Notes: generated by a model from the letters alone, not told the origin. Shown: positions 11,914 to 29,612, numbered from the stretch's first letter. The stretch: 64,000 nt of DNA from Lysobacterales bacterium (GCA_020442635.1 JAGRJR010000007.1:434-64433); one strand, 5' to 3'. Numbers and translations are program-made.

Positions 11914-11995
11914 GTCCAACTGGTTATTGTAAAACCCAAAACATTTTATATTTGTTGTTGCAAGTTGATCAACATTCTGTCTTATGAAAGCTTAT

Positions 11996-13747
11996 CTATA
12001 GCTGCTTTTTGATGGTGTTTTGACTGTTTGAGTCCATCAGTATGTGGTACTGCAGCATTTCATAGTCAATTAGCCACTGTTGCTGAACAACTGAGGGTGA
12101 TTTGGAAGTGGGGTATTTCGAAGACAATGGGTTGATGTAATCCATTGCTTGCGTATTGAACTTGAAAAAGCCGTCGGGCATCAACCCAGCTACTTTCAGT
12201 GTCAGCGCAGACAGGTAATTCATACTGACAAAAAAATTATCGTAAGCGGGTTGTTTAGGCAGGTAGTTAGACCAAATCAACGCTGGAACCACATATTTTT
12301 GATGATTTTTCGTGTGCTCATCTCGAATTAAGTCCAGTGCAGGCTGGTGATCACCGGCAAATAAAATCAAGGTCTTTTCCTCCGACTTTTCGTAATAGGC
12401 CACCAAATCAGTCAGCAAGGTTTCAACATGTCTTAAGGCATTAAAATATGCCAGGGTTTTGTTTTGTAGGTGTTTAGAAATGCCATGATTATGTTTAAGT
12501 TTAAGGGTGCTTTCAGGATAGTCTTCAAGGTGCCATGGCATGTGGCTGGAGTTGGCAAACGAATAAATAAAGGACTTGTCTTCAGCAGCAGTGATTGCGG
12601 TAATTTGTTTGAACAGCTCCTGGCTGGATGCAAACCGACCAGAAGGATCTAATTCAATCCCATCTCCGGTTAATGCCATTTTCTGATTGATACCAATGTA
12701 ATCATAAATTTTTTCAAAACCAAAGCCAGAAAGTTCAACCACCTGGATTACACTTGATTTGAATCCCCAGTCACTCAGCACCCTGGCTATACTCGGTGTA
12801 TGATCTGATACCAACTCTCGAAAAGGCAGAGATTCGATGGGTGTGAAAAACATACTCAATCCGGTTAATAGTTCAAATTCGGTATTGATGGATTTGCCGC
12901 CAAAAACAGGTACCACGACTTTTCCTGAAATGTGCTTTTCACGTAATTTATTGAAATGTTTAACTACGACTTCAGATGTCTCCCAACCAAGTTCATTTGG
13001 ATCAACAAATGATTCCACCAGGATAAATATGATATTGTCGGGAACCTCGGTTTCAGGAGTTATGGCTGGTGATTTGTCTAAGTCGTGTTTGGTTAAAATT
13101 TTGTTAACCTGCTCCTTGTTATAACCTTCAGGTTTAGTAGGTTTGGTTTGAAAGAAAATAGATTGGATAAAAAAATTCAGGTATCCATGTTTGGTAAAAC
13201 GATTAACCAGATTGCTGTTTTTTAATATTAATAGCTTTTCAGCTTTTAAATAAGCACTGATGTGATTTGATTGCCAGGTCATCAAGCCAGAAGACACAAT
13301 CAATATAAACAGAGCATAATAGCGAAGCCCGCGGATGGGTTTTTCTTTTTTTAACAGGAAAACCACCAAAACAATCAGTGGTACAACAGCTATGATGAGA
13401 TAAAGCAAATATTCAATGATGACTGAGGTGGTTCTGAGCAAATCATCCAATTGGGTGAAATCGATGGGCATCAGTGGCGCATCTAAAAAATTGATCTTGA
13501 CCAGGTTAACCAGAATAAAACAAAGGTAGACAGCCAAAGTTATCCAGGTCGTGGCATACAGTCTGGAGGTTAAAAAAACCAGAAATAACCACACAAAAGC
13601 CAAAGCCATCAACTCAATTCCAAGGCCCCAACTGAAACCCTTGGTTTTACCAACGAGACCAGATGCGGGAATGGCCCAACCGTAAACCAACGCAATAAGC
13701 AAAGTGGCAAGAAGAAGAAAAATAAAACCGGCTTTTAAATACTTCAT
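11996..13747 (-). CDS. LtaS/OpgB-type membrane phospho-alcohol transferase (alkaline-phosphatase superfamily)
   Basis: Multi-TM N-terminus plus an extracytoplasmic domain with VESFVDP and GGKSINTEFELLTG (Thr nucleophile context). No C/S-x-P-x-R formylglycine motif. Confidence 0.7.
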   Translation of the reverse strand: MKYLKAGFIFLLLATLLIALVYGWAIPASGLVGKTKGFSWGLGIELMALAFVWLFLVFLTSRLYATTWITLAVYLCFILVNLVKINFLDAPLMPIDFTQLDDLLRTTSVIIEYLLYLIIAVVPLIVLVVFLLKKEKPIRGLRYYALFILIVSSGLMTWQSNHISAYLKAEKLLILKNSNLVNRFTKHGYLNFFIQSIFFQTKPTKPEGYNKEQVNKILTKHDLDKSPAITPETEVPDNIIFILVESFVDPNELGWETSEVVVKHFNKLREKHISGKVVVPVFGGKSINTEFELLTGLSMFFTPIESLPFRELVSDHTPSIARVLSDWGFKSSVIQVVELSGFGFEKIYDYIGINQKMALTGDGIELDPSGRFASSQELFKQITAITAAEDKSFIYSFANSSHMPWHLEDYPESTLKLKHNHGISKHLQNKTLAYFNALRHVETLLTDLVAYYEKSEEKTLILFAGDHQPALDLIRDEHTKNHQKYVVPALIWSNYLPKQPAYDNFFVSMNYLSALTLKVAGLMPDGFFKFNTQAMDYINPLSSKYPTSKSPSVVQQQWLIDYEMLQYHILMDSNSQNTIKKQL

Positions 13748-13966
13748 TTTGTTTTTATTGTCTCTTTCTTAAGCATTTTTTAATATCAATGGTGTTAAGT
13801 TACTTATCATAAAATATGAAAATTGTGCTTTTAAAGCTGATGTAAACAGGGCGTTGAATTATAAAAGACATTGAGCTATATACTCAAAAAACTTTAAATT
13901 TTTGACTGATAAGACCGAAAGAGCCGTTTTAATTTTAAAGAATTGATTAAACTGCTGAAAAAAACC

Positions 13967-16126
13967 ATGAAAAAGTTCATTAAACCAACTGCTTTGCTGT
14001 TCTGTTTCTTCACAGAAGTGATATCAGCTCAATCGACTGGAACGGGTTGGGTTGTTGAAAACATTCATGGGCCATCGCAAGTCGGAATCTCGGACAACTT
14101 GTCCATAGACATTAATGATGATGGTTTGATAGACATCGTTTCTGTGTCCATAGAGGATGGAAATTTGAGGGCATACATCAATCAGGACAACCTACAGTTT
14201 GAAGAATTGACGCTTAGCAAAGATCTGTTAGGTGCATACAGACTGACATCAGCCTACTTAAATCAAGATGGTGAAATAGATTTTATCATTCCTTCCATTG
14301 ACTCACATCAAATTATTGCCATGATAGCAGTGCCTGGTGAACCCATACCAACCTATCAAAAGAAAATCATTGCTGAGAATGTCTTATTACCCACTGATGC
14401 ACTGGCGGCCGATTTCAATAATGACGATTTGATGGATGTTGTCAGCATTTCATTTGAGGATGGTTTACTTTTGCTACATACTCAAAATATGCACGGTGAA
14501 TTCACCACGACGCTTATTTCAGATACACCAGTAAGGCCACGAAAAATGGTGACAAAAGATTTTAACAATGATCAGCGGACGGATATTTTACTGGCTTCAT
14601 CTGAAGACAACAGCATCAGGTTATATCTCAATGAAGGCCCGGGTTTATTCACAGAAAGATTGATCAGTGATCAGTTAGAAGGTGTTAGTTACATTGCTTT
14701 GTGTGATGACGAGGCCGCATTGTTTCCAGACTTTGCAGCTGGTGTAAACGGTGCTGACCAGGTGGTTCTTTTTAATAACATCAATGGTGAATTATTTTCA
14801 GAGTTCATTGTTGATACCAACTTACCTGGTGCCAACGCAGTTCACTGTGCCAACATAGATGAAGATTCAGATTTGGAATTAATTGGTATTTCAAATACCT
14901 TAGCAAGCATTTATTCCTACCAATTGACCGGACTGATAAATAAACAGTTGGTTGCTAATGACAGAGACGGCTATGTTTCTATTGATGTGGCTCAATTTGA
15001 TATCAATAAAGGCCCGCAAATTCTCACACAGTCATATTTTGCCCAACGAAATTTACTTTATATGCCGGGCTCAGAAAATCAGGAAACAGTGGTGTGGGAA
15101 GACTTTCCTGAAGGCGCCAGGAGAGTGATGGCTGCAGATTTAACAGCGAATGGTACAGATGACCTGGTGATCAGTAGTTTTCGCAGTAATGAATTGATTA
15201 TGTATGAAGAAAATGGCACCGTTCAGCGATTGCTTGCCAGTGGACTCGAGGGTGTGGATGGCATAGAGTTGTATGACTTGGATAACAATAACCTTATAGA
15301 CATTCTTGTAACCACGGCTTATGGTGACGAAATATTTTGGTTTAAAAATTTAGATGGTGTCACCTATGAACAACATCTGATAACATCCAATCTAGACAAT
15401 CCACAAAGCGTCTTGGTCACGGATATCAATGGTGACCAACAACCAGATGTAGTAGCCACTTCATCTTTGGGTGATGCAATTTGGTGGTTTGAGCGGAGTG
15501 GAAATGTGTTCACTGAGCACAATATTTCAATGATTTCTGATGGTGCCAAGGATTTGTGCGCCGCGGATTTCAACAATGATGAAATGATGGATCTGGTGGT
15601 GACGAATTACTTCGGAAATTCGGTCGATTTATGGGTGAATAATCAACAAGGTTCAAGTTTCAGTCAAGTCAGCCTGGTCACAAATGTGCTGAGGCCCGAA
15701 AAGGTGGAGTGTGATAATTCGTTGTCGGATGGTCCGAAGGATGTTTGGGTATCGATTTCCGGAGATGGTCAAATGTTGCACTTAAAACACTTAGGTGGCC
15801 TGAATTTTGAACCACAAATTGTGGTTGATAAACTCAGTCAACCCAGAGGTTTTACCCTTTTTGAAATCGGTGAGAAGCGTAATCTAGCCATTGCCGACAA
15901 TACGCGCTCTGAAATTATAGAGGTTCGAAATGTTTTAGCTGATCAACAATGGACCGGTCTTTTGGCCTCGCCGTTATTTGGAATCAATTCGGTGTTTTCA
16001 GCCAGGCCTCTTAAAAACGAAGCAGTCAGAATTTATGCCACATCCACCGTTGATTCTGCCTTGAGAAGCTTAAGTTATCGGGACTTGATCTTTGAGGACG
16101 GATTTAACCTTCAATCAGCTCGGTAA
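13967..16126 (+). CDS. secreted FG-GAP/VCBS-repeat protein
   Basis: Signal peptide MKKFIKPTALLFCFFTEVISA. Repeated Ca-binding-like D-x-N-x-D-x-x-x-D units (DINDDGLIDIV, DFNNDDLMDVV, DFNNDQRTDIL, DINGDQQPDVV, DFNNDEMMDLV). ATG 13967 is preferred over TTG 13943. Confidence 0.75.
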   Translation: MKKFIKPTALLFCFFTEVISAQSTGTGWVVENIHGPSQVGISDNLSIDINDDGLIDIVSVSIEDGNLRAYINQDNLQFEELTLSKDLLGAYRLTSAYLNQDGEIDFIIPSIDSHQIIAMIAVPGEPIPTYQKKIIAENVLLPTDALAADFNNDDLMDVVSISFEDGLLLLHTQNMHGEFTTTLISDTPVRPRKMVTKDFNNDQRTDILLASSEDNSIRLYLNEGPGLFTERLISDQLEGVSYIALCDDEAALFPDFAAGVNGADQVVLFNNINGELFSEFIVDTNLPGANAVHCANIDEDSDLELIGISNTLASIYSYQLTGLINKQLVANDRDGYVSIDVAQFDINKGPQILTQSYFAQRNLLYMPGSENQETVVWEDFPEGARRVMAADLTANGTDDLVISSFRSNELIMYEENGTVQRLLASGLEGVDGIELYDLDNNNLIDILVTTAYGDEIFWFKNLDGVTYEQHLITSNLDNPQSVLVTDINGDQQPDVVATSSLGDAIWWFERSGNVFTEHNISMISDGAKDLCAADFNNDEMMDLVVTNYFGNSVDLWVNNQQGSSFSQVSLVTNVLRPEKVECDNSLSDGPKDVWVSISGDGQMLHLKHLGGLNFEPQIVVDKLSQPRGFTLFEIGEKRNLAIADNTRSEIIEVRNVLADQQWTGLLASPLFGINSVFSARPLKNEAVRIYATSTVDSALRSLSYRDLIFEDGFNLQSAR

Positions 16127-16976
16127 AAACTTCCCATAAACTTGAACATTTGAGGTCAATCATTTCTATTTGATGGTTTTTCAAGGGATGTATCTCAATA
16201 GTCTCGTCTTGAGAATCAAGGTTAAACGATGATTCGTTAAGGTATTCTCTGTTTTTAGATAACAGTCTGCTGCCTGTTAGATACTCCTGATCATTGCATG
16301 TTAACGATTCTTGGGTCCCAAGACCTTGGATTTCATCAGTGCCTACATCAATCAATTTTGAAATAGTTTCAGTAGGATGTTCACAAAGTTGATCATATCT
16401 AATCAAATGATCAACTTGGTTGATTTGATTAAGTATCTCCTGATTAACGGATAACCACTGGTCAGCACTTTGCACCAGTTTGTCTTGGTTTTGTATTTGT
16501 AGCCAATTTTTGGGCTTGACACCCCACCATCCATTTTCTGGCGGATACCCCATGTGCTCATGAGGTGTGTACTTTTTCAGCAGTGAAAATACATTGGCCA
16601 GTGGGTTTCTGATCATGGCGACAATCTTGCTTTCTGGAAAGTGTTTCTTTAACCAGGGAATTCTTACCGAGTTGTATGGATTTTTATTGATCCAAATGGG
16701 ACGACTTATGTTTTGAACCTTAATTCTTTCCAATAAGAGATGCTGATCTGACACCAAAAAATCATCTGAATCCAGATTGTGACCATGCTCACCATTATAT
16801 TGTTGATAAATTCGCCCACAAGGTTCTGCGGTGGGAGAAAAGGGTGGACTGTCTCCCCAGAAATCTCTTCCTTCGAGTTTAAATGGATTGGCAACATTGG
16901 GTTGGGTTAAAAGCAAACGGTTCAGAAGCGTGGTTCCTGATTTTTGTAAACCTATGATAAAAATAATCTGACTCAT
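16104..16976 (-). CDS. sulfotransferase
   Basis: 5'-PSB-like FIIGLQKSGTTLLNRLL and 3'-PB-like MIRNPLANVFS. Confidence 0.75.
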   Translation of the reverse strand: MSQIIFIIGLQKSGTTLLNRLLLTQPNVANPFKLEGRDFWGDSPPFSPTAEPCGRIYQQYNGEHGHNLDSDDFLVSDQHLLLERIKVQNISRPIWINKNPYNSVRIPWLKKHFPESKIVAMIRNPLANVFSLLKKYTPHEHMGYPPENGWWGVKPKNWLQIQNQDKLVQSADQWLSVNQEILNQINQVDHLIRYDQLCEHPTETISKLIDVGTDEIQGLGTQESLTCNDQEYLTGSRLLSKNREYLNESSFNLDSQDETIEIHPLKNHQIEMIDLKCSSLWEVFTELIEG

Positions 16977-17041
16977 GATATTTGATGTCTGGGTAACCGA
17001 AGTTGTCAGTTATGTATTCGGTCTCATGTTAAATTGTTGAA

Positions 17042-18931
17042 TTAATCGTTGCCAGTTGCTGCAGAAAGTTGACCGTAGTAATTTTCTCCATATAAAACAT
17101 CATACTGCAAAACTTGATAATCAAAAACCATATCTTTGAATTGCTCAGGAATTTCATCGGTATAGGTGTCATTTGCAGTTTTGACTAACATTGATAACTC
17201 TTCAATTTCATCAGACATTTTAATCAACAAATTGTACAGCGGGGTGGTTTTAACCTGGATCAATTTAAGCAGCTTGGCTCCTAACAGATTCATGCTCAGG
17301 TTTTGATTGAACTGAGGTGAATTAAAATTACTCCAAACAACATAAGGCACTCGGTGGTTTAACAACAGTGTGTTTTTGTCAGTATTGAGAATGATTTTTT
17401 TAAAGTGATTAACCATGGCCTGCCTGCTGCTAAATTGTGACTTGATATTTTTATTGCTCAAATGACTTTCAATCATGAAATTTTGTCGATATTCCGGAAG
17501 GCTGGGTTGATGGTCACCCATAATCAGAATAACGGTATCTTCATCGTATGTTTCATAGAAACTGATTAATTTTTTAATGGCTTTGTCAGTACTATGAATG
17601 GCGTTAACATAGGTTTTTATCTCTTTTTTTCCTTCTTCAAAAAAACTACCTTCAACATCTAGGTCAGAATTTAAATAAGCTGGGTAGTTCCAGGGGCCAT
17701 GGGTTGAATTTGGAAAAGCAAAAATAAACTGGGGTGGTTCTCGTTCGGTCATTGCTGTTATTTTGTTGATCAATGAAGTGTCGTCGGAATACCTTTCAGC
17801 TGCATCCCAGCTAGACTGCGGGTCATGTAACGTAGTGCTGATGTCATTAAAGCCCATATTGGGATAAGCAACCTGATAATTAAAGTAGCCAAGGCTTGCA
17901 ACATGAATGGCATTGGTTTCGTAGCCGTTATTTTTAAATTCATTGACAATGCTGGGTTTGGGCTGATTCATCAAATCAATATATGGAATAGAACCTTCTG
18001 TGACAAAGCGTAAACTCAGGCCGGTTAATAATTCAAACTCTGCATTTGCTGAACGGCCGCCTATGACTGGTGAGATGACTTCTCCTGAGGAAAACGCTTC
18101 ACTGATGGCCCGAAAATTTGGGATAGGGTCAAAACTGGTTTTAAGTCCCAACTTTCTTGGGTCGGTAAAAGATTCGATGAAAAAAATAATGACATTGGGT
18201 TTATCTGATGAGGGTTCACTGTTTTTGTTTTGATATTTTTGGTATATGCTTTTAACCAGATGATAGTCATATTTGGCAGGTGCTTCTGGTTTGTCACTTT
18301 TCAAAATCCGATATATAAATGTAAATAAAAAACCGTTTTTTTCAGATCCTTTCAGTGGGTAAGACTGACCTTTGGCAATGTTGGCATCAACCAGACTTTT
18401 GGCTATTGAATCATGATTCACCACCACCCCAAAAATCATCCCCACAGTCAAAATGCGAATGGTAAGTAAGTGCTTCCCGAAAAAAGGGGTTTTCTTCTCC
18501 TTTTGCATCAAAAACAACAGCAATCCCAACAGCAATGAGGCCATTATTACACCCGGAAAATAGGGCTTGAACACTTCCCAGGTCCTGATTAATTCAAGTG
18601 AATGTACCAGATCTATCGGGTAAACAGGCACGCCCAATGCCACAATTTTTTCAATATTTATCAGCATGAAAAAAATGTAACAAACAGAAACCAAAACCAA
18701 TGAACCAATGGTTCTGCGGGTAAAAACCAGCAAAACCGTGAACAATATAAGCATGGTCAGAGGTTCAATATAAAGAGAACTTTGTCCTAAGCGTAAGGGA
18801 TTAACCAGAGTTAAGCTGGAAATGACATAAGCCAGTAAACTGTGAAATAAAAAGAAATAAATTGCAGCCAATAAAACCCAGAGAATTTTATTGAAGTAGT
18901 TTGCTTTATTTTGAGAATTAGCGGTTATCAT
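17042..18931 (-). CDS. LtaS/OpgB-type membrane phospho-alcohol transferase (paralogue of 11996-13747)
   Basis: Multi-TM N-terminus, IESFTDP, GGRSANAEFELLTG. No formylglycine sulfatase motif. Confidence 0.7.
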   Translation of the reverse strand: MITANSQNKANYFNKILWVLLAAIYFFLFHSLLAYVISSLTLVNPLRLGQSSLYIEPLTMLILFTVLLVFTRRTIGSLVLVSVCYIFFMLINIEKIVALGVPVYPIDLVHSLELIRTWEVFKPYFPGVIMASLLLGLLLFLMQKEKKTPFFGKHLLTIRILTVGMIFGVVVNHDSIAKSLVDANIAKGQSYPLKGSEKNGFLFTFIYRILKSDKPEAPAKYDYHLVKSIYQKYQNKNSEPSSDKPNVIIFFIESFTDPRKLGLKTSFDPIPNFRAISEAFSSGEVISPVIGGRSANAEFELLTGLSLRFVTEGSIPYIDLMNQPKPSIVNEFKNNGYETNAIHVASLGYFNYQVAYPNMGFNDISTTLHDPQSSWDAAERYSDDTSLINKITAMTEREPPQFIFAFPNSTHGPWNYPAYLNSDLDVEGSFFEEGKKEIKTYVNAIHSTDKAIKKLISFYETYDEDTVILIMGDHQPSLPEYRQNFMIESHLSNKNIKSQFSSRQAMVNHFKKIILNTDKNTLLLNHRVPYVVWSNFNSPQFNQNLSMNLLGAKLLKLIQVKTTPLYNLLIKMSDEIEELSMLVKTANDTYTDEIPEQFKDMVFDYQVLQYDVLYGENYYGQLSAATGND

Positions 18932-19824
18932 ACGGGCATGATGTCATAGACTTCCTCGGCAATTCCCTGTAAAGAAATGTGGCTGGTTTGATCGTTCTGA
19001 ATCAATGTGACACCACTTTCTCCTGCCAGAATACCCTGATCAGAAATATTTCCAACATATTTGTTTTGAGAATGTGAAACCACTCGACCTTTTGATGTGC
19101 CAAATAACAAAACGGAATCATCGATATACAAACCTCTTGTGTAGCCATGTTCAACTTGAGTGATGACTTGGCCATTTTCCTTGATGACACGTTTTTTGCT
19201 TGAGTCACAGACGTACAGCTCATTGTTATAAGAAAAAAGTGAATGCGGCTGCTTTAGGCCAGAGATGAGTTTGGTGTTTGAATTGATATTGAGTGCGTAG
19301 CCTTCTTCTGCAAACATCCAAAATTCTTTTTCTTTGCTGCCAAAAGCACTGATGATGATATCGCCTTGATGCATACAAATAGAATTGATGTGGTGCGTGT
19401 CAGCCAGTGTGCCGATTTCAAAAACCGTTTCGAACCCAGCATTAATCCCAGCTCTGATACCCTTGTTGAAGTTATATTTAACCACCCGATCTTGTTTGGT
19501 CGCAACCAAGTATAAATTGCCATTGTTATACAGAACCGAATGGGCGCCTTTGATTGGTTCAAGTGACAAGCAATGGATCAATTCAAATTGCTTGTTGAGC
19601 ACCAATAGTTTTGAGTGTTTTGATTGCGCCGCTAAATAATAATAATCATTGCATTGTGCCAAGCCAGTGATGCCATTGATTTCATCAAATTCCTCACATT
19701 CTAAGCAGATATCTGTATAGGTTAAATGTTTATTTTTCAGGGTAATTAGGCCCAACAAACCACTTTTTCTGTCGGATGATTTGTTTTTTCTGTTGTTACA
19801 AAAGCTGATTAAAAAAGAATTCAT
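18928..19824 (-). CDS. hypothetical protein, possibly beta-propeller-like
   Basis: 298-aa ORF. Its stop overlaps the start of the downstream LtaS-like gene by 4 nt. Repetitive strand-like segments (NGNLYLVA, NNELYVCD, DSVLLFGT). No family assignment possible by eye. Confidence 0.45.
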   Translation of the reverse strand: MNSFLISFCNNRKNKSSDRKSGLLGLITLKNKHLTYTDICLECEEFDEINGITGLAQCNDYYYLAAQSKHSKLLVLNKQFELIHCLSLEPIKGAHSVLYNNGNLYLVATKQDRVVKYNFNKGIRAGINAGFETVFEIGTLADTHHINSICMHQGDIIISAFGSKEKEFWMFAEEGYALNINSNTKLISGLKQPHSLFSYNNELYVCDSSKKRVIKENGQVITQVEHGYTRGLYIDDSVLLFGTSKGRVVSHSQNKYVGNISDQGILAGESGVTLIQNDQTSHISLQGIAEEVYDIMPV

Positions 19825-19833
19825 GTTATTTGA

Positions 19834-20490: not shown

Positions 20491-20790
20491 TTTGAAATCA
20501 ATAAAAGCTATCGTGGTTGGTCTTCAATCAAATTCAGTCACTTACAGTCGTTTATCCTTTGCAGCACGTTAAGGGTTTAATGCTGAATTCATTTGTTGCT
20601 CATTATATGGTTTGGATTCTGATTAAGCCACAGTTGTTGTCACAAGTTATTTTTTTAGTGTAAATGTCACCTTTTTTATGTAGGATTACCTGAGCGGAAA
20701 ATAAATTTAATTTTTTTATCAGGAATTGACCGAAAAAAAAAATCCTTCCGTTCTTTATACTAAGTAAATTAACTTTAATAGGTGAAACAA

Positions 20791-21561: not shown

Positions 21562-21583
21562 TAACAGACTTCTTATAGTCAAT

Positions 21584-21619
21584 AAAAGCCTGTAGTTTTC
21601 TACAGGCTTTTTTATTTTT
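21584..21619 (+). terminator. intrinsic terminator
   Basis: AAAAGCCTGTAG-tttt-CTACAGGCTTTT followed by a T-run. Confidence 0.8.
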
Positions 21620-21658
21620 AACTTGTTAAACACTCTAAATTGGAAGGTTGGATCTAAA

Positions 21659-22462
21659 ATGTCTCGAGCCACACATGATTTTGACTTAGAGGCTCCCATT
21701 ATCATTACCGGAAGAGGTGGTTCTGGTACCCGGATGTTGTCCACCTTATTACAAAGTGTTGATTTGTTTTTAGGAAACAAAATCAATCAACAAGGTGACT
21801 CAATGGAATGGGTCAAGCTCAATCGGAACATGTTGCAACAAAATATCAGCCTTGAAAAAGGTCAATTTTCAGAAAAATGGCAACATCTTTTGAAAGAAAA
21901 TGCCCAGACAATAATAGCAACTGAGCAGGCCAAAAATCATCAGGCCTGGGGTGCAAAGTTACCAGAGTTCATGTTTTTTATTCCTGAATTAAAACAGGTG
22001 TTTCCAAAAGCAAAATTTATCCATTTAATCAGACACCCCATTCACCTTTCTCTTCGACGCAGCCATGTTTCATCAAGGCTAGGTAATGCAGTTGGGGATA
22101 TTGTTTTACCTAAAGCCTATGAATTTGCAGGTTTGCCATTTGATCCGAACAACCAACAGGAACACATAAACAATGCGGTCAGCTGGTATTATCAACTTTC
22201 ACAAGTGACAGATCATTTTGCTCAACACGTTAATCAAGGTGATTTATTGACCATCAAGTATGAAGATATATTGGTAAATCACCAAGCTGTTCTAAATTCA
22301 TTGTGTCAATTTTTAGAATTACCCAAAACCAGTGAAAGTAATTTAGTGATTGATTTAACCAGAGCCAATCAGGACATTAAGTCCCATCAACAAGCCAAAG
22401 AAGTTTGGCAAATATGTGGACAACTGGCCAAACAATTTGGCTATCGATATACACAGGCATGA
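21659..22462 (+). CDS. sulfotransferase
   Basis: IIITGRGGSGTRMLSTLL and LIRHPIHLSLRRS. ATG 21659 is preferred over TTG 21623. Confidence 0.7.
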   Translation: MSRATHDFDLEAPIIITGRGGSGTRMLSTLLQSVDLFLGNKINQQGDSMEWVKLNRNMLQQNISLEKGQFSEKWQHLLKENAQTIIATEQAKNHQAWGAKLPEFMFFIPELKQVFPKAKFIHLIRHPIHLSLRRSHVSSRLGNAVGDIVLPKAYEFAGLPFDPNNQQEHINNAVSWYYQLSQVTDHFAQHVNQGDLLTIKYEDILVNHQAVLNSLCQFLELPKTSESNLVIDLTRANQDIKSHQQAKEVWQICGQLAKQFGYRYTQA

Positions 22463-23298
22463 CTTTGAGAGTATTTACCAATCAACTTATTGTAATTGCA
22501 GGTTGTCAACGCAGTGGTACAACCCTGACGGGTCAAATTCTTGGCGCGCATGAAAAATGCTTCTTGTTAGACGAAACAGATAAATTTTACGTTTGGTTTG
22601 ATGCTTTTGTTGCAGGAAATAAGGAACACCCACAACAACTGAATGAAAGTATCTGTCATGCTGCAGGTAAATACCTGGATCACAGAAATCAATTTCGTTC
22701 CATTGAGGACCTCAGCGGTTATGACATCGTGCTTAAGGCTCCCAACCTCAGTTTTCATTATCATGAATTGTCGATGATTCATCCCAAGCCGATAATCATT
22801 TATCCTGTCAGAGATGTCAGGGGAGTGGTTGCCAGCATGCTTAAATTCAAAAAGATGAATCCACGTCAAACTGATTTTTTTTCCAATAATAATTTCATTG
22901 AAAAGAACTATCCGGATGAATTGAAGTTATTGAAATCAACTTCGGTAGCTGATCATTGCAAGTCAGCCATAATCTGGAAAATTAAATCCATGCTGTATGT
23001 TAAGTTTGAGGCTTGTGGTTTAAACCCCTTTGTCTTTAAGTATGAGAATCTGGTGCATCATCAACAACAAATGTGCCAAAAAATGGCTGAACATTGTGGG
23101 CTCGAATTTGCACCAAACATGCTGGCTTATTACCGCGTTTTGGCTGGTAAAGGACCGGGTAAAACTTTACGTTCAAGAAAAATTGACGATGTTTCTATGT
23201 CTAAGTGGAAAAATGATCTGACGCCCAATCAAGTCAAAGATGTGATGGCAATAGCAGCAGCAGCCAATTTACATTTTTCAAAAGCTTTGGCGCATTAA
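22459..23298 (+). CDS. sulfotransferase
   Basis: IVIAGCQRSGTTLTGQIL and YPVRDVRGVVASM. ATG 22459 forms an ATGA overlap with the upstream stop. Confidence 0.7.
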   Translation: MTLRVFTNQLIVIAGCQRSGTTLTGQILGAHEKCFLLDETDKFYVWFDAFVAGNKEHPQQLNESICHAAGKYLDHRNQFRSIEDLSGYDIVLKAPNLSFHYHELSMIHPKPIIIYPVRDVRGVVASMLKFKKMNPRQTDFFSNNNFIEKNYPDELKLLKSTSVADHCKSAIIWKIKSMLYVKFEACGLNPFVFKYENLVHHQQQMCQKMAEHCGLEFAPNMLAYYRVLAGKGPGKTLRSRKIDDVSMSKWKNDLTPNQVKDVMAIAAAANLHFSKALAH

Positions 23299-23323
23299 CT
23301 GTATAGAGATTTATAAAAAAACA

Positions 23324-24316
23324 ATGAAAGCTGGGGACGTATTAAAACCTTTGGGAAATCTTAAATTTATACCGGATTGGTTTAATCATGAAGTTGAAAT
23401 TTCAGACCACACCATCTCTGTTCATCATCAAATAAAGTGCTTTCCTGCTGATATCACAAAGCCAAACAATACAATCCCTTACAGTTTTTATGACAGCAAA
23501 AATATTCCTGTTACTGCAGCCAATCATTTCAGAGGATATGAAGAAAACGATTTTGAGTTTGTAGATAACAGGCATATAGATGCTGAAATAAGGCAAAAGC
23601 TAGCTGGAAAGTCGTTATACCTGGGGTGGCTTTTTTCTCATTACGGACACTTTTTAACAGAGTCATTATCACGGTTATGGGTGATTGAAGAAGTTGACTT
23701 TCAAGGTTTTGATTATTTTTTGTTTAACTACAAACAAAACAAGAAAGGCGATATCCTAAAGGCCCAATTCATTTGGGACACTCTGGCTAAATTAGGTATT
23801 AATAAAGAAAAAGTGGTGTTAATTGATGACTGTTACACCATAGAAGAGCTGCACATTCCTACTCAAGCATTGGTTTTGCGAAGTGGTGTATCTAAAAAAA
23901 TGAATTCAGTGTGGAGCCAAGTTTCTAAACCAAACGCGCATCCTCATTTAAAAACCTACATATCCAGAACGGAGATTCCCAGACGGGCACTACAAAACGA
24001 AATCGATTTACAAAACGCCTTAAAAGAGAAAGGTTTTAAAGTGATTGCCCCTCAGAACATGTCGTTCGAAGATCAGTTGGCGATTTATGCCAAGACAAAA
24101 TTGCTGGTCAGTCCGGCAGGAACTGGCTTACACAATGCAGTTTTTATGCCTAAAAACACCCGCATCATCAGCATCACCCATGAGGATTTTCTATTAATTA
24201 ATGAATTGCTGTGTTGTTATGCCTCAGAGGTAGATTATCAGGTTTATTTAACTGAATCTGTGCAAACAGATGGGCAATGGAGCGTTGATATCAAAGATTT
24301 TTTGGCTTACCTTTGA
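23324..24316 (+). CDS. glycosyltransferase, GT61/DUF563-like
   Basis: SHYGHFLTESLSRLW and C-terminal SPAGTGLHNAVFMP resemble GT61/DUF563 family motifs. This is from memory, not searched. Confidence 0.55.
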   Translation: MKAGDVLKPLGNLKFIPDWFNHEVEISDHTISVHHQIKCFPADITKPNNTIPYSFYDSKNIPVTAANHFRGYEENDFEFVDNRHIDAEIRQKLAGKSLYLGWLFSHYGHFLTESLSRLWVIEEVDFQGFDYFLFNYKQNKKGDILKAQFIWDTLAKLGINKEKVVLIDDCYTIEELHIPTQALVLRSGVSKKMNSVWSQVSKPNAHPHLKTYISRTEIPRRALQNEIDLQNALKEKGFKVIAPQNMSFEDQLAIYAKTKLLVSPAGTGLHNAVFMPKNTRIISITHEDFLLINELLCCYASEVDYQVYLTESVQTDGQWSVDIKDFLAYL

Positions 24317-25158
24317 CTGATTTCAGACATTAATTTTTCAATGTCTTGTTTGTTATAGAAGTTCCACATAGAACCTTCACTGACTAAAAGTTTCTCACCG
24401 AGCTTTAACATCAAATTGTGATCATACAGATCATTCAGGTTTTTGTTCCTAAGCCTTTCATTCAATGTTTCAGCACCAGGTATCATTTTTTTTAGTATGT
24501 TTCCACCACTGCTAACGACATCCTCGTAACGAATGATGTGCGCATTGGATAAGGATGAAAAACGCTCAAAAAACCAGGACATAATAGTGATTTGTCGTTC
24601 TACCACGTCGTGAGTTTGATTGACTTGAGCTGAAAGTTCCGGATTAACTTTTTCGGCGGCAGGAATGTGACCACGATTGATGGGTAGTTTTACACTGCTC
24701 CAGGAAGCCAATAAGGACAAAGGATTTCTGATGATGGCATAACAAGGGTACAAAGCATTGAGCTGATTCAAAAGTTGACTGAAAATGGCATTGTGCTTTA
24801 TGCATAACTTGAAATTGGCATGTAATTTTTTATTTATATCAAACAAACCCTTTTGAGCCCCTTCTGACATTTGTCTGAGTCCGTTTGGGTCTTTGGAGCT
24901 GGCCATGTGATTGTCTGGCACGGCATCATTAATTAAAAGTGAAACAGCTTGTTTTTGTTCTAATATTTGCTTGCTGGTGTGATTAAAAAATGAGGCAATG
25001 TTTTCTAGGATTTGCTGTTCATTCAGTGCTTTGAAGTTTTTAATTTTAATGGGTTCATTCAGTGCCACAGCATTGTCAACTTTGTTGATTAAATGACATA
25101 CCAGGGTGGTTCCTGATCTGGGTAAGCCAGTGATGACAATGTGATTAGGGTTCTTCAT
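24307..25158 (-). CDS. sulfotransferase
   Basis: IVITGLPRSGTTLVCHLI and IIRNPLSLLASW. Confidence 0.75.
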   Translation of the reverse strand: MKNPNHIVITGLPRSGTTLVCHLINKVDNAVALNEPIKIKNFKALNEQQILENIASFFNHTSKQILEQKQAVSLLINDAVPDNHMASSKDPNGLRQMSEGAQKGLFDINKKLHANFKLCIKHNAIFSQLLNQLNALYPCYAIIRNPLSLLASWSSVKLPINRGHIPAAEKVNPELSAQVNQTHDVVERQITIMSWFFERFSSLSNAHIIRYEDVVSSGGNILKKMIPGAETLNERLRNKNLNDLYDHNLMLKLGEKLLVSEGSMWNFYNKQDIEKLMSEISQR

Positions 25159-25179
25159 TATAATTTTTAAGCGTTTAGT

Positions 25180-26136
25180 TCAATTGAATTGCCAGAGCTT
25201 GTCACTTTGGTTCATGATATCAATGAATTTTTCACGCTCTCGTTCTAGGGTGTATTCACTGGAAGTCCGGGCTGCTGTTTGTAGCATCTTATGTTTAGTT
25301 GATGAGTCCATATTTAATGCCAGGTTAATGGATTGAATAAAAGCTTCAAGTGTATAGCTTTCAGGAATGATACATGTTTCTGAATCGCGACAGAAACTTT
25401 GGTTGCCTATACAGTCCGGACAAATGACCAAAGACTGTAAAGCCATGGCCTCAATGGCAGGCAGGTAAAAACCTTCGGTTGGGTTGGGTAAAAAAACCGC
25501 TATGGCGTTGTTATTAATGGCAGCAAGGTAATCAAGCTGAGACAGTTTACTATTAATTAATCGAACCTCGATGCCTTTTGCACGAAGCCTTTCAGCCAGT
25601 TCATCCCCAAATGCAGGGTTTTTAAGCGCCAGAATCAAAACCGATTGATGTTTATCTGCATGCACTAAGGAAGACAGTGTTTTGGGTATGCTGAAACCAT
25701 TCGGTATCGAAAAAACAGGACCATTCACTTGTTTACTTGCTAATAAAGCTTGCTTAACTTCATCACTGACACAAATTCGAATGGCCTTGTTGCTTAAGTA
25801 TTGATACAAAGGGTTTTTGGGGTTGGCGTGTCTGACATGCTGAATAAAGTTAATGATGGGTTTTTGGGGATCAAATTTAATCGGCATTTCCCAGTCCTTA
25901 CCAGCAAGAAAATAAATATCTGGATTAATACTGTTCAGTTCCTTGATGACTTTGTTTTTGACATTGATAAATGGGTTATTTGCGTCCCAAATGCTATCCG
26001 CTGTGAAGTAAACATAAGGATCAAAACGTTTGCTATTCAGCAAGTGAGTAAAATAATGCCAGACTTTCAGATGACCGCCAGTGAACATTCGATAATTTCG
26101 AAAAAATAAAACTTTTTGGTTGTCTGAGTTGTTCAT
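25180..26136 (-). CDS. glycosyltransferase family 4-like (GT-B)
   Basis: E-x7-E motif TEGFYLPAIEAMA in the C-terminal half. Confidence 0.65.
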   Translation of the reverse strand: MNNSDNQKVLFFRNYRMFTGGHLKVWHYFTHLLNSKRFDPYVYFTADSIWDANNPFINVKNKVIKELNSINPDIYFLAGKDWEMPIKFDPQKPIINFIQHVRHANPKNPLYQYLSNKAIRICVSDEVKQALLASKQVNGPVFSIPNGFSIPKTLSSLVHADKHQSVLILALKNPAFGDELAERLRAKGIEVRLINSKLSQLDYLAAINNNAIAVFLPNPTEGFYLPAIEAMALQSLVICPDCIGNQSFCRDSETCIIPESYTLEAFIQSINLALNMDSSTKHKMLQTAARTSSEYTLEREREKFIDIMNQSDKLWQFN

Positions 26137-26168
26137 TGTTTCGGTCTAATCTGTTTTGCCTGTCTGCT

Positions 26169-27176
26169 TCAAGGTTTGCGACTGACCAATTGAATGATGA
26201 TTTTACCTTCATCTGAATGTCTGGCAGCATCAAACAATTGGTCAATTTGCTGTTTGAACTGCAGGATTGTTGCTTGGTGTTCGCTGGAATCAGTGTTGAT
26301 TTCAGGCATCGGACATTCACCAATTAAATAATTTAAGTAAGCATAAAAATAGGTGCCAAGTATTTTTTTAAAGACAATCTCATCTCTGGACCTGACATTG
26401 AATTTGGTGTCTGCGGACTCAAGTTTTGCCGTTTTAATGCTTTTACTTATCAAATCATAATCAACAAAACCCTTGTTCAGATACCTTCCACTCATTCCAC
26501 CTATGTGTACCAGACCGTCAATGTTTTGGTATTGTTTGGAAAAATTTAAATGATGCATGAGCACGCTCAATAGCTTGCCGGTATCAAACATTTCAAAGCT
26601 AATGTTGTAGGTATTAATCACATGACGTGCTGAATCGGGAATTTGCTCAATCGAGCGGTATTGTTCAAATCCGACACCAAAAGTATCCATAGTATGAGCC
26701 AAAGCAGTTCTTTTATAGATGCAAAAGAATGATGAGGCCAAAGGAATTTTACCATCATGGCTGACGGTGGTTGCTCCCCCTTTGAAGCCTGAATAAATCG
26801 AGTCAACATCATTCTCCATGCGGCTGCATGATGAAAAAACGGCATCATTTCCAAGCAAATCATAAACTCCTGTAGTGACTTTCTCAAAAGCAAATATGTC
26901 GGGATCCATAAAACAGAACAATTCATGGCTTTCATTAAAAAACAACAAATCAAGCAATGTTCCATGCGGTAAAATTGATTCACTTTCAACATTCAGAAAA
27001 TTTAGTCGGTTTGAAGTTTCACAAATCTGCTTTAACAAGGCTGACTCTTGATTGCCTAAAGCATTTCCAACCAACCTGAATTTGTATGGGGTATTTAATA
27101 ACAGACTGATTAATGGAAGGGATTGGAAGCTAACTGTGTCAGGTAAAAATATGATGTTGAATATGGGCTCTTTCAT
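26169..27176 (-). CDS. putative GT-A-fold glycosyltransferase
   Basis: D-x-D-like FMDPDIF after an N-terminal beta-alpha-beta segment. ATG 27176 is preferred over TTG 27203. Weak assignment. Confidence 0.4.
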   Translation of the reverse strand: MKEPIFNIIFLPDTVSFQSLPLISLLLNTPYKFRLVGNALGNQESALLKQICETSNRLNFLNVESESILPHGTLLDLLFFNESHELFCFMDPDIFAFEKVTTGVYDLLGNDAVFSSCSRMENDVDSIYSGFKGGATTVSHDGKIPLASSFFCIYKRTALAHTMDTFGVGFEQYRSIEQIPDSARHVINTYNISFEMFDTGKLLSVLMHHLNFSKQYQNIDGLVHIGGMSGRYLNKGFVDYDLISKSIKTAKLESADTKFNVRSRDEIVFKKILGTYFYAYLNYLIGECPMPEINTDSSEHQATILQFKQQIDQLFDAARHSDEGKIIIQLVSRKP

Positions 27177-27239
27177 TGGGCAGTAACAAATCAGTCGTAG
27201 CAAATGTTACAATATAACGTCAATTGATGATATACCTAC

Positions 27240-27698
27240 ATGAAACTATTCAGTATAAAGTCCTGCGTGATTGTTTGCTTCGATCATGAAATCAAAGACC
27301 ACATCGATCTTGCCAAGCAGATGGCTCGAATCAATCCGAAACTGGAGCTTTTGTTGCTGTGTGTTTTTCAGGGTAAGCAGCAGGCTGAAAAATTTCATGA
27401 TGCAGGTTTCCCTGAAAACTTGAACTTAATCAGGTACCCTTGTAACCGAACATTCGATGCGACTTTTGCGCTGATTTGTTTTTTTCTGAAACAAAGCAGA
27501 CAACAGATTTTGGTGCTAAAACGACCGATAGCTATTCAAATACCCAAAAGAAAATGGGTTTTAAGATCCAAGGGGATTAATAAGGTTTCAATCAACAAAG
27601 AGACTTCTGGGGTTCTGTTGCTAAAAAATAAGCTGATAATCAGTCAGCAAAATGACATCAATACCAGTCAGTCTCTCAAACCACATGTATCAGTTTAG
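27240..27698 (+). CDS. hypothetical protein
   Basis: 152-aa ORF filling the gap between flanking genes. No motif recognised. Confidence 0.35.
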   Translation: MKLFSIKSCVIVCFDHEIKDHIDLAKQMARINPKLELLLLCVFQGKQQAEKFHDAGFPENLNLIRYPCNRTFDATFALICFFLKQSRQQILVLKRPIAIQIPKRKWVLRSKGINKVSINKETSGVLLLKNKLIISQQNDINTSQSLKPHVSV

Positions 27699-27713
27699 AT
27701 AATCAATAGTAAA

Positions 27714-28490
27714 ATGACCATATCTTTAAGCCGTTCTGAAATTCAATCTATTGTTGAAAAAACTGATGTCTCAAGATTAGCTCAAATCAAAAACCTGATT
27801 TTGTTTGTCGGTCACGCACACAGTGGTCACAGTATTGTGGGGTCAATTCTGGATTCGCACTCAGACATCGCCTTAGCCAATGAAGTCAACATTGCCAAAT
27901 TAATTGTTGATCATGACCTAACCCAGCAAGAAATCACTTCTGTTCTGTTATATTTTTCATTTCAGAACAGCAATGAAAAGGGTTGGAAGAATTCTGAATA
28001 TCAGTACAAACATGATAAGGGATTTCAGGGAGAAACCAGCCATCCGTTGATTTTAGGCGATAAAAAAGCAGGCGGTACAACAAGAATTTTGATTAAGCAT
28101 GATTGGCTGCTCAATCATTTAATTGATATGTTTAAAGAAAAAATCAAGTTTATTTTTGTAAGAAGAAACCCGCTTGATGTAGTGGCCGCTTATTCTTACT
28201 ATATGAATCAGCCACCCTGTCAATTTCATGTTGACAGGTACCTAGAAAATTATCAAATGGTAAAAACCATCTCCCAAAAAGTTCATTCCAATCAGTTCAT
28301 TGAAGTCTCCCAAGAACGTTTTGTTCATGAGCCTGCACGAGTGATGGTGCCAGTGTTTGAAAAAATTTCCATACCCGTTCAACCTGAACAATTAAAGCAA
28401 TGGGTTTCGAGTGTCAGATCTGATATCAAAGGTAAAAGTGAGACCATAAAAATTCCAGAGACCTTACGAGTTCAATTGCCCGTTTTTTAA
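27714..28490 (+). CDS. sulfotransferase (degenerate PAPS loop)
   Basis: ILFVGHAHSGHSIVGSIL (His replaces the usual Lys/Arg) and VRRNPLDVVAAYS. Confidence 0.6.
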   Translation: MTISLSRSEIQSIVEKTDVSRLAQIKNLILFVGHAHSGHSIVGSILDSHSDIALANEVNIAKLIVDHDLTQQEITSVLLYFSFQNSNEKGWKNSEYQYKHDKGFQGETSHPLILGDKKAGGTTRILIKHDWLLNHLIDMFKEKIKFIFVRRNPLDVVAAYSYYMNQPPCQFHVDRYLENYQMVKTISQKVHSNQFIEVSQERFVHEPARVMVPVFEKISIPVQPEQLKQWVSSVRSDIKGKSETIKIPETLRVQLPVF

Positions 28491-28534
28491 TCGGATGTTG
28501 AATTTTTCACGTTTTTTCTCTGTACCACTTTGTT

Positions 28535-28543
28535 TGTTATAAT
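28535..28543 (+). promoter_or_regulatory. candidate extended -10 promoter (TGtTATAAT)
   Basis: TGTTATAAT lies 27 nt upstream of GTG 28570. No good -35. Confidence 0.35.
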
Positions 28544-28569
28544 GCCCTAACTTTTAAGAAGCTATCTGA

Positions 28570-29496
28570 GTGAAGTCTGTGGAAAATTACATTGTTTTCT
28601 GTGTTGAAAACGGCCTATTAGAGCAACAAGGGATTCTGCTGGCTCATTCAATCAATCGATATCTGTATCCACAATATAAAGCCATTGCGTTTTCTCCCAG
28701 GTCTGGTCACTTTATGTCTGATGAAACTGCATTGGTTTTAGATAGCTTGAATGTCATTGTTAGAAAAGAGCACCTCAATGAGCGGTTTAACCATTATCCA
28801 ATTGCCAATAAACTGCTGGTGATGAGCCATCTTGAAAAGCAATTGAATTGTGATGGTCTGATGTTTCTAGATACAGATACCCTGGTCACCAATAACTTTC
28901 ATATACCAAATGATAAACAGTTGTTGCTAAGGCCTGTGGATAATAAGGGTCCCGGAACTACCGGTGATACGGATGAAAATGATGTATTTTGGCAAGATGT
29001 ATTTGACCTTTTTGAGCTGCCTATAGCTGCGCCAACTGTCATAACCACAGTTGATCAAACACTGATTCGAGGTTATTTCAATGCAGGTCTGGTTTGGACC
29101 AGTGGTTTGACGAATTTTTATCAACAGTGGGAACAGGATTTTCTTAAATTGGTTGACTCAGGTTTGAGACCTCAAAAGTACCAATCCAAAGATGGTAATG
29201 ACTTCAGGTGTCTTGATCAAGTAGCTTTGGCTGTGACTGCAGTCAGATATCAGCAACATTTGAACTTGTTGCCTGAAACCTACAATTATCCACTTCCGTT
29301 TAAGCCCAGGTTACAAGCGCGAACTGGTCATCCCACACTGAATGAATTGACTCACATTCATTATCATAAATGGTTTCAACATCCCGATTTCTTGGACCAC
29401 ATCACTTCTGAACAGGAAAAACAATCTGAACAGTATCAATGGTTGAAATCACAATTGCCCTTACAACCAGAAATCAGTGGGCCATTTAAGTGTTAA
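28570..29496 (+). CDS. putative nucleotide-diphospho-sugar transferase (GT8-like)
   Basis: FLDTDTLV D-x-D motif in a GT-A-like context. GTG start. Confidence 0.45.
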   Translation: MKSVENYIVFCVENGLLEQQGILLAHSINRYLYPQYKAIAFSPRSGHFMSDETALVLDSLNVIVRKEHLNERFNHYPIANKLLVMSHLEKQLNCDGLMFLDTDTLVTNNFHIPNDKQLLLRPVDNKGPGTTGDTDENDVFWQDVFDLFELPIAAPTVITTVDQTLIRGYFNAGLVWTSGLTNFYQQWEQDFLKLVDSGLRPQKYQSKDGNDFRCLDQVALAVTAVRYQQHLNLLPETYNYPLPFKPRLQARTGHPTLNELTHIHYHKWFQHPDFLDHITSEQEKQSEQYQWLKSQLPLQPEISGPFKC

Positions 29497-29612
29497 CACT
29501 GAAAGTTTTCAGTTTGAATGAGCTCAATTTCTAATAAAACATAAACCATTTCATCCGTGAAGTTCAGGGCAAATCAGTCTAAAATGGTGAACTTTAAATC
29601 TTTGATTTCACT

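Follow-up and report, generated by a model that had tools for sequence, protein, structure and literature searches.

Few sulfated glycans appear in the characterised literature on bacteria, and the specificity of bacterial polysaccharide sulfotransferases is known in hardly any case. The synechan locus (xss) of Synechocystis sp. PCC 6803 encodes two sulfotransferases, which has been described as unprecedented (PMC8205485). For marine Vibrio and Cobetia, sulfated capsules have been documented whose gene clusters encode sulfotransferases (PMC11641403, PMC11766843). In Vibrio sp. KMM 8419, three sulfotransferase genes are scattered through a locus of 80 genes that also contains cysDNC and genes for an ABC transporter (PMC11641403), and the locus of Cobetia marina KMM 1449, comprising approximately 70 genes, holds genes for synthesis of 3′-phosphoadenosine 5′-phosphosulfate (PAPS) as well as sulfotransferase and ABC-transporter genes (PMC11766843). 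One sulfotransferase is encoded in a Pontiella cluster (PMC7356697). In this study, we analysed 64,000 nucleotides of DNA from a Lysobacterales bacterium (GCA_020442635.1 JAGRJR010000007.1:434-64433), referred to as the window, in which six sulfotransferase genes (ST1 to ST6) lie within approx. 17 kb between a gene for a DinG-like helicase and polA. This region (11877-29190) is a strain-variable replacement island that is conserved in kind across the genus Marinicella, and it probably serves the tailoring of a polysulfated surface polysaccharide.

An earlier note on this DNA had stated that bacterial glycan loci usually contain none or one sulfotransferase. The statement is adequate for characterised loci (two in synechan, three in Vibrio, one in Pontiella) but overstated for raw genomes, where ST1 homologues from various phyla often lie in arrays of four to nine sulfotransferases. 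Thus, six sulfotransferases are unusual only in comparison with characterised systems. The Prokaryotic Genome Annotation Pipeline (PGAP) already labels each of the six proteins 'sulfotransferase', and novelty therefore does not lie in the annotation of single genes. The complete locus is so far undescribed. We found nothing in the literature linking Marinicella to sulfation, and a full-text search for Marinicella together with sulfotransferase returned nothing relevant. To our knowledge, none of the enzyme families of the island has ever been tested. To the existing annotations we add the genus-wide, strain-variable island, a core module that crosses phylum boundaries and an invariant atypical loop in ST6.

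Results

An island replaced as a whole between near-identical strains

The host is a Marinicella, a marine gammaproteobacterium, known from a metagenome-assembled genome (MAG): its Rho is identical to, and its PolA more than 90% identical to, the proteins of a Marinicella sp. MAG. Comparison with the sister MAG GCA_041395465.1 revealed 99.6% DNA identity over positions 1-11876 of the window and 98.7% over positions 29191-42283; between 11876 and 29191 there was no DNA similarity between the two. The right breakpoint at 29191 falls inside a gene for a GT8-like glycosyltransferase. At this site the sister strain has a cassette of approx. 19 kb that also encodes six sulfotransferases, as counted with fixed family hidden Markov models (HMMs), together with an FG-GAP protein (38% identity), a second propeller, a methyltransferase, a GT2 enzyme, a metallophosphoesterase-domain protein and a protein with nine transmembrane (TM) helices. 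Homologues common to both cassettes are only distantly related (ST1 44%, ST6 36% and the GT8-like enzyme 58%). The GC content of the island is 0.385 compared with 0.414 in the flanks.

The cassette of the window is found a second time, collinear and with 94.8% DNA identity, on a contig from an unrelated sequencing run. Between these two copies, the ratio of nonsynonymous to synonymous substitution rates (dN/dS) ranges from 0.06 to 0.40 for ten genes, ST1 to ST5 included, with 0.11 for ST1, 0.13 for ST3, 0.10 for ST4, 0.23 for ST5 and 0.06 for a secreted jelly-roll protein described below. The collinear copy and the low ratios indicate that the cassette type persists and that its genes are under purifying selection. 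Replacement of the region as a unit had no place in the earlier account of the locus.

The same families occur in shuffled order at the helicase-polA site of about 10 Marinicella/Marinicellaceae genomes. A scan of a genome collection with the ST1-family profile returned 38 loci, and 11 Marinicella/Marinicellaceae islands were compared. ST1 and the jelly-roll protein are present in all 11, ST6 in 10, a DUF4915 protein in 8, and ST5 and the FG-GAP protein in 7 each. GacH-like proteins occur in six loci besides the window, the GT8-like and a GT2-like glycosyltransferase each in six including the window, ST4 in four and ST3 in three. Where visible, the flanks are constant: polA lies at one end, and the helicase, a TPR protein, PBP1, a 250-aa protein and a 1450-aa glycosyltransferase fusion are encoded at the opposite end. 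The type strain of M. pacifica (CGMCC 1.12181) has a complete helicase-polA island with five sulfotransferases and no exporter. Islands of other species add a DegT aminotransferase, an NDP-sugar epimerase/dehydratase, AT3, AT3-SGNH and MBOAT acyltransferases, FkbM and other methyltransferases and a TOD1/MUCI70 glycosyltransferase-like protein. The DegT, epimerase, acyltransferase and methyltransferase genes represent hallmark carbohydrate-tailoring functions.

Six mutually divergent sulfotransferases

Six coding sequences had been proposed as sulfotransferase genes in the earlier note on account of their PAPS 5′-phosphate loops. All six were found in place with every loop, and each of the proteins matched a sulfotransferase family of Pfam (E values from 4e-21 to 4e-6), a match being counted only above the curated gathering score. 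PF13469 (Sulfotransfer_3) was matched by ST1 (16104-16976, minus strand; 1.5e-19), ST3 (21659-22462, plus strand; 4.1e-21), ST4 (22459-23298, plus strand; 2.6e-16), ST5 (24307-25158, minus strand; 4.4e-6) and ST6 (27714-28490, plus strand; 2.4e-9). Two of these five also matched Sulfotransfer_1, among them ST4 (PF00685, 5.5e-10). The remaining protein, ST2 (19834-20490, minus strand), matched PF03567 (Sulfotransfer_2) over its full length with 4.6e-9; a direct search with ST2 against PDB sequences gave nothing meaningful. The match of ST5 is marginal (27.6 versus 27 bits), and ST5 belongs to an orthologous family of seven members, of which the one from the sister strain has a precomputed PF13469 match. 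ST3 and ST4 could start at the ATG codons at 21659 and 22459 or, just as plausibly, at alternative upstream TTG codons at 21623 and 22405.

The loops GLQKSGTT (ST1), IPKCGGTS (ST2), GRGGSGTR (ST3), GCQRSGTT (ST4), GLPRSGTT (ST5) and GHAHSGHS (ST6) are present literally in the respective open reading frames (ORFs) and are kept within the orthologous families. Relatives of ST2 in other islands have the loop IPKTAGTS. A basic residue followed by an S/C-G-T-T/S loop is seen in QKSGTT, PKCGGTS, QRSGTT, PRSGTT and RGGSGTR. ST6 is the exception: in GHAHSGHS, His replaces the usual Lys or Arg, and this loop is invariant in 10 orthologues. Orthologues in which it is strictly invariant include those of loci L002, L006-L011, L014 and L016. 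The His-type loop may reflect altered donor binding or catalysis.

A downstream 3′-phosphate motif of the type R-x-P had been ascribed to every one of the six. It is found as R-[NH]-P...S/A in five, namely ST1 (RNPLANVFS), ST2 (RNPWDKIVS), ST3 (RHPIHLSLRRS), ST5 (RNPLSLLAS) and ST6 (RNPLDVVAAYS); ST4 deviates with RDVRGVVAS. The broader motif R-x-x-...-S is present in all six.

None of the six proteins has a TM helix or a signal peptide, which fits cytoplasmic users of PAPS. Their mutual divergence, as claimed earlier, is large: the best pairwise BLASTP E value is 9e-5 and the proteins are nearly unalignable in pairs, suggesting ancient paralogues or independent acquisitions rather than recent duplicates. 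Scanning all stop-to-stop ORFs of the 64 kb with the fixed family HMMs returned exactly six sulfotransferases, all of them within the island. NoeE was the only named NCBIfam model matched by ST1, ST4 and ST5, with 16-33 bits against a cutoff of 500. Judged by sequence, ST1 to ST6 are in all likelihood genuine, mutually very divergent sulfotransferases, and their family membership would make each of them a sulfuryl transferase that uses PAPS.

An open-ended iterative phmmer search tried for counting sulfotransferases drifted into the GT8-like family via fused ORF calls in high-GC loci; it also reached an unrelated 274-aa family, which is not a sulfotransferase according to hhalign. Because of this drift, the counts were redone with the fixed family HMMs, which undercount distant sulfotransferases (three versus five by precomputed Pfam at a planctomycete locus).

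A core module outside the genus

Genes for ST1 and the GT8-like enzyme are adjacent in Planctomycetota, Solirubrobacterales and other groups. In Nitrosococcus oceani, homologues of the GT8-like enzyme, ST1, ST6 and the jelly-roll protein occur side by side, accompanied by three additional sulfotransferases, GT4 enzymes and a protein with a sulfatase domain, and the same locus holds an ABC ATPase gene adjoining that of a 5-TM permease. The N. oceani array (L044, 9003-13587) is broken by an IS605/TnpB remnant. A planctomycete MAG (L046, 8936-11776) combines ST6, ST1 and the GT8-like enzyme with three more sulfotransferases, GT4 enzymes and a Wzy_C protein; the jelly-roll protein is missing from this module. 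The presence of the core module beside ABC-transporter and Wzy genes ties it to canonical polysaccharide pathways.

Glycosyltransferases and membrane-anchored transferases

The sulfotransferase genes are interleaved with genes for four glycosyltransferases. A GT61-family enzyme (23324-24316, plus strand) matched PF04577 with 5.2e-25, and a GT4-like enzyme of the GT-B type (25180-26136, minus strand) matched PF00534 with 3.6e-6 (27.1 versus 26.4 bits). The product of 28570-29496 (plus strand), whose 3′ 300 bp lie within the conserved flank, is by its predicted fold a retaining GT-A enzyme. The AlphaFold2 (AF2) model has a mean predicted local distance difference test (pLDDT) score of 94.4, and Foldseek matched it to glycogenin, LgtC, alpha3GalT and WbbM with a probability of 1.0 and TM-scores of about 0.5. 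D101-x-D103 is invariant. As neither the Pfam GT8 HMM nor a direct PDB sequence search gave a meaningful match, its assignment as a probable GT8/GT6-like GT-A enzyme follows from fold only.

The fourth enzyme (26169-27203, minus strand) is a divergent GT2-like protein that has no direct Pfam match and gave nothing meaningful in direct PDB sequence searches. It belongs to a family with 369 representative homologues (clusters), and PF00535 (Glycos_transf_2) was matched by 11 of 41 diverse remote homologues, so that the assignment is transitive; in addition, D100-x-D102 is invariant. An hhalign comparison between the GT2-like and GT8-like families aligned the DxD region alone and was not significant. 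Two of the 41 homologues are fused to Sulfotransfer_3 domains. In other organisms, some members of the family are fused to Sulfotransfer_3 or GT1 domains, and such domain fusions are direct evidence that links glycosyltransferases with sulfotransferases. With Pfam evidence for two enzymes, fold evidence for one and transitive Pfam evidence for one, the count of at least four glycosyltransferases given in the earlier note is upheld.

Two further transferases had been classified there as LtaS-type. Paralogue a (11996-13747, minus strand) has four N-terminal TM helices and paralogue b (17042-18931, minus strand) has five, followed in both by a PF00884 domain (5e-26, residues 238-521, and 1e-34, residues 245-540, respectively). 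The best PDB match of paralogue b is the phosphoglycerol transferase GacH (5wcx/5u9z; E 4.4e-22, residues 216-502); this E value belongs to paralogue b alone, with which paralogue a clusters. The metal and nucleophile motifs ESF, S[ST]HxPW and GDH are kept in both, with GG[KR]S, i.e. Ser, at the nucleophile position; in paralogue a they read ESF, GGKSxNxE, SSHMPW and GDH. The formylglycine signature C/S-x-P-x-R is found at the nucleophile position of neither paralogue and is wholly absent from paralogue b. The sole S-x-P-x-R of paralogue a, SLPFR at residue 306, lies 20 residues past the nucleophile-equivalent Ser. Both proteins are best classed as LtaS/GacH-type transferases and not as sulfatases, in agreement with the earlier note.

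Further genes of the island

A secreted FG-GAP/VCBS beta-propeller protein with a signal peptide and seven repeats (FG-GAP_3, 4.8e-33) is encoded at 13943-16126 on the plus strand. Its gene overlaps the 3′ end of ST1 convergently by 23 bp (16104-16126), and its C-terminus, LIFEDGFNLQ, resembles the linker before a jelly-roll-like domain in the distant homologue P0265. The gene at 18928-19824 (minus strand) encodes a DUF4915/TIGR03032-like cytoplasmic protein (PF16261, 1.1e-13), probably also a beta-propeller, with only weak WD/NHL matches in the PDB; we found no mention of DUF4915 or TIGR03032 in the literature. A 152-aa protein without family match (27240-27698, plus strand) forms a divergent gene pair with the GT2-like gene, to which it is adjacent again in L006, L009, L014 and L016.

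The secreted beta-jelly-roll protein (20782-21561, plus strand; AF2 pLDDT 89.5) is polysaccharide-lyase-like or lectin-like and belongs to a family of 23 hypothetical proteins. Its top Foldseek match is the PL20 glucuronan lyase 2zzj (E 4e-8), followed by alginate lyases of PL36, PL14, PL7 and PL18 and a PL28 ulvan lyase, with lectins ranking lower; the top matches have E values from 4e-8 to 1e-5 and TM-scores of 0.4-0.64. Invariant residues of the family, many of them Arg, include R86, R104, R251, E82, E177 and D152.

Other regions of the window

On the minus strand at 2118-7291, the 1450-aa fusion of the constant flank has the domain order GT4-coiled coil-GT2-GT4, and the adjacent 250-aa protein is membrane-anchored. 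The best PDB match of the GT2 domain is chondroitin polymerase (E 1e-9, approx. 100 generic GT2 residues). We did not accept this match as a sign of a glycosaminoglycan backbone because the similarity is generic.

An operon for a MacB-type pump at 56205-61185, 27 kb from the island, consists of genes for an ABC ATPase, three HlyD-like adaptor paralogues and a MacB/FtsX permease. Just upstream, a patch of low GC content (0.322) at 54001-56000 contains an unannotated ORF of 232 aa and a gene for a CAAX/Rce1-like protease. An ops-like GGCGGTAG lies at 54915-54922 on the plus strand; the window has two such 8-mers versus 0.34 expected. At 33538-36893, a gene for a Ser/Thr protein kinase containing a TPR region immediately precedes that for an extracytoplasmic function (ECF) sigma factor of the PF07638 type, a pairing kept in the sister strain. 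The 691-aa protein encoded at 36905-38980, with Chlamydia-PMP repeats and divergent InlB B-repeats, is probably a surface adhesin.

Discussion

We consider it fairly probable that the region resembles a serotype locus, can be exchanged horizontally and serves to tailor a surface polysaccharide, polysulfated and glycerophosphorylated, such as a capsule, an exopolysaccharide or an O-antigen-like chain. This reading rests wholly on computation. It builds on the enzyme families, the island boundaries, the conservation throughout the genus, the purifying selection and the link of the core module to polysaccharide export genes elsewhere; from these we infer the acceptor, PAPS as the donor, the regiospecificity, the sequence of the reactions and the route of export. 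In the cytoplasm, the GT61, GT4-like, GT2-like and GT8-like enzymes would add sugars to a lipid-linked or growing glycan, after which the six cytoplasmic PAPS-type sulfotransferases might each sulfate one distinct position. The product would leave the cytoplasm via machinery encoded outside the island. In the periplasm, the two GacH/LtaS-type enzymes would, by homology, add glycerol phosphate or a related phospho-head group from membrane phospholipid, and the folds of the secreted lyase-like jelly-roll protein and the FG-GAP propeller suggest that they bind or trim the polyanionic polymer. The ratio of six sulfotransferases to four glycosyltransferases leads us to conjecture that the charge density could be very high. 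The multiply, regiospecifically sulfated and glycosaminoglycan-like product envisaged in the earlier note stands in part: a sulfated glycan is the best-supported product, but its glycosaminoglycan-like character is not established (no hexosamine or uronate gene occurs in the window), and one position per enzyme is our supposition.

Several points weigh against a tailoring island for a surface polysaccharide. Rather than one long operon, the island is a patchwork in which at least six short transcription units alternate in orientation, and no ops/JUMPstart element was found in it. Genes for Wzx, Wzy, ABC-2, OPX, an initiating transferase, a ligase, nucleotide-sugar synthesis and cysDNC/cysQ are absent from the window in a Pfam scan of ORFs of at least 120 aa, which covered nearly all of them; DegT and NDP-sugar epimerase-type genes do occur in other islands. 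For Wzx/Wzy, Wzm/Wzt, Wza, nucleotide-sugar and cysDNC genes, this agrees with what the earlier note had read from the sequence. Wzx, Wzy, ABC-2, OPX, initiating transferases, a ligase and cysDNC/cysQ were likewise not found in the Marinicella islands examined, so that neither these nor the window comprise a complete Wzx/Wzy-, ABC-transporter- or synthase-dependent cluster. The two PF00884 paralogues have Ser where the nucleophile of LtaS and GacH is, as we presume, Thr. Unlike PL7-type lyases, the jelly-roll family has neither a His nor a Tyr that is invariant; the protein may bind an anionic polymer in a lectin-like manner rather than cleave it, or may act by another mechanism. The solved structures nearest to the ST1 profile are protein-tyrosine sulfotransferases (TPST1 and TPST2), with similarity in the PAPS-binding region only. 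Finally, the literature holds no chemistry on any Marinicella glycan.

The lack of export, polymerase and initiation genes in every Marinicella island examined would be explained if the product were an oligosaccharide linked to lipid A-core, i.e. a short O-chain or an outer core of the lipooligosaccharide (LOS) type. Synthesis and sulfation would then take place directly on lipid A-core at the inner leaflet, MsbA would flip the product, and glycerophosphorylation would follow in the periplasm, with no need for Wzx, Wzy or ABC-2. The GT8-like enzyme resembles the LOS galactosyltransferase LgtC, the JGI name of its homologues is 'LPS biosynthesis glycosyltransferase', and cassette replacement at the strain level is typical of LOS and O-antigen loci. 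However, no waa, heptosyltransferase or Kdo-transferase genes lie nearby, a secreted lyase-like protein conserved in all islands suits a polymer better, and the core modules of N. oceani and the planctomycete with their ABC-transporter or Wzy genes indicate polymers. The universal lyase-like protein and the ABC/Wzy contexts elsewhere thus favour a polymer over a lipid A-core carrier, and we regard the latter as rather unlikely.

The similarity of the ST1 profile to TPST1 and TPST2, its best PDB matches, weakly suggests a protein substrate. Before their secretion, the FG-GAP protein, the jelly-roll protein or other exported proteins might undergo glycosylation, tyrosine sulfation or both in the cytoplasm. 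The best-conserved members of the island include two secreted proteins that are not enzymes, lipid-carrier machinery is absent, and GT61 includes protein O-glycosyltransferases. Yet the TPST similarity is limited to approx. 60 residues of the PAPS-binding region, the jelly-roll family lacks an invariant tyrosine, and the M. pacifica island has no FG-GAP gene. Moreover, carbohydrate substrates are indicated by the genes for GacH-like, AT3, MBOAT, DegT and epimerase proteins, and elsewhere the core module resides in Wzy or ABC polysaccharide clusters, all of which makes modification of proteins improbable.

The MacB-type (DevBCA-like) tripartite pump at 56205-61185 could be the exporter of the island product, which might then be a sulfated glycolipid or small amphiphile. 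In Marinicella sp. W31 and M. rhabdoformis, a homologue of the pump abuts the FG-GAP end of the island (L007, 13055-18091; L045, 20548-20906), and the island itself has no polymer export genes. In our window, however, 27 kb separate the two, in most other species the pump is not adjacent either, and no lipid, polyketide synthase (PKS) or fatty-acyl gene occurs in any island. As the lyase-like protein and the Wzy/ABC-2 contexts elsewhere also argue for polymers, we give this explanation little credence, slightly less even than a protein substrate. A catabolic locus that degrades sulfated polysaccharides of algae, with the sulfotransferases as incidental members, might be read from the PF00884 'Sulfatase' matches and the lyase-like fold of the jelly-roll protein, but we rejected it as highly improbable because the PF00884 proteins are membrane-anchored and of the LtaS/GacH type with no formylglycine motif at the nucleophile position, biosynthetic transferases make up 10 of the 16 genes, and the locus lacks TonB receptors, SusD, glycoside hydrolases and sugar transporters.

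If the island does tailor a surface polysaccharide, the wholesale replacement of cassettes between strains implies that the decoration pattern (sulfate and, elsewhere, methyl, acetyl and glycerol phosphate) would vary from strain to strain. The 1450-aa fusion and the 250-aa protein are kept beside the island in L002, L009, L011 and L006, and on the basis of this synteny they could represent a conserved backbone synthase. A more speculative extension, which we put forward tentatively and would not yet bet on, is a strain-specific 'sulfation code'. Here, conserved enzymes, possibly the 1450-aa fusion, would make a backbone, and an exchangeable repertoire of as many as six regiospecific sulfotransferases, together with methyl-, acetyl- and glycerophosphate-transferases, would decorate it, so that serotype diversity would lie mainly in the pattern of anionic decoration and less in the sugar composition. 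The conserved GT8-like/ST1/ST6 module, in which ST6 has the invariant His-type loop, would install a disulfated sugar motif common to gammaproteobacteria and planctomycetes.

The families concerned, six in the window and about ten throughout the genus, are conserved, under purifying selection and present in cultured strains (the M. pacifica type strain, Marinicella sp. W31 and M. rhabdoformis), so that the predicted polysulfated, glycerophosphorylated polymer is directly testable. If the prediction is true, the island would be a source of regiospecific carbohydrate sulfotransferases for the enzymatic synthesis of heparin-like and other sulfated glycans. The exchange of cassettes between near-identical strains offers a natural comparison of decoration with respect to interactions with phages, grazers and metals. 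In addition, the cross-phylum GT8-like/ST1/ST6 module can serve as an annotation anchor for loci with multiple sulfotransferases in uncultured bacteria.

Comparison with known systems

The island shares with the synechan xss locus (PMC8205485) the interleaving of sulfotransferases of distinct subfamilies with several glycosyltransferases in one locus. In xss, the number of sulfotransferases equals that of sulfates per repeat unit. Whereas xss has two sulfotransferases, eight glycosyltransferases, Wzx, Wzy, a polysaccharide copolymerase (PCP) and its own regulators, the island has six and four, respectively, and no assembly, export or regulator genes. Unlike xss, it also encodes a pair of secreted proteins as well as GacH-type transferases and, as a chromosomal island, varies from strain to strain.

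The loci of Vibrio KMM 8419 and Cobetia KMM 1449 likewise come from marine gammaproteobacteria, place sulfotransferases in glycan clusters and undergo replacement of regions from strain to strain; the Vibrio locus also has a DUF563/GT61 enzyme. These loci comprise 70-80 genes with cysDNC(Q), nucleotide-sugar operons and an ABC transporter or kpsSC, none of which the island has. The three sulfotransferases of Vibrio are dispersed, in contrast to six in 17 kb here.

Rhizobial NoeE and NodH belong to the same superfamily and are bacterial PAPS-dependent carbohydrate O-sulfotransferases. They are not orthologues of the island enzymes, whose bit scores are far below the cutoff, and their acceptor is a lipochitooligosaccharide signal rather than a surface polymer. 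GacH of Streptococcus pyogenes (5wcx) and LtaS resemble paralogues a and b in the combination of an N-terminal multi-TM anchor with an extracytoplasmic domain of the alkaline-phosphatase fold, and their metal-binding E, DH and H motifs are kept in the paralogues. The island enzymes differ in their Gram-negative host, in having four to five TM helices and in the Ser at the position of the presumed Thr nucleophile.

O-antigen and capsule loci are hypervariable between conserved flanks, for example between galF and gnd in Enterobacteriaceae. Like these, the Marinicella island occupies a fixed chromosomal site, has a GC content below that of its flanks and is replaced as a whole cassette between near-identical strains. 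Classical loci of this kind contain wzx/wzy or wzm/wzt and nucleotide-sugar genes in one operon, whereas the island is composed only of tailoring enzymes, glycosyltransferases and secreted proteins, arranged in at least six short divergent units.

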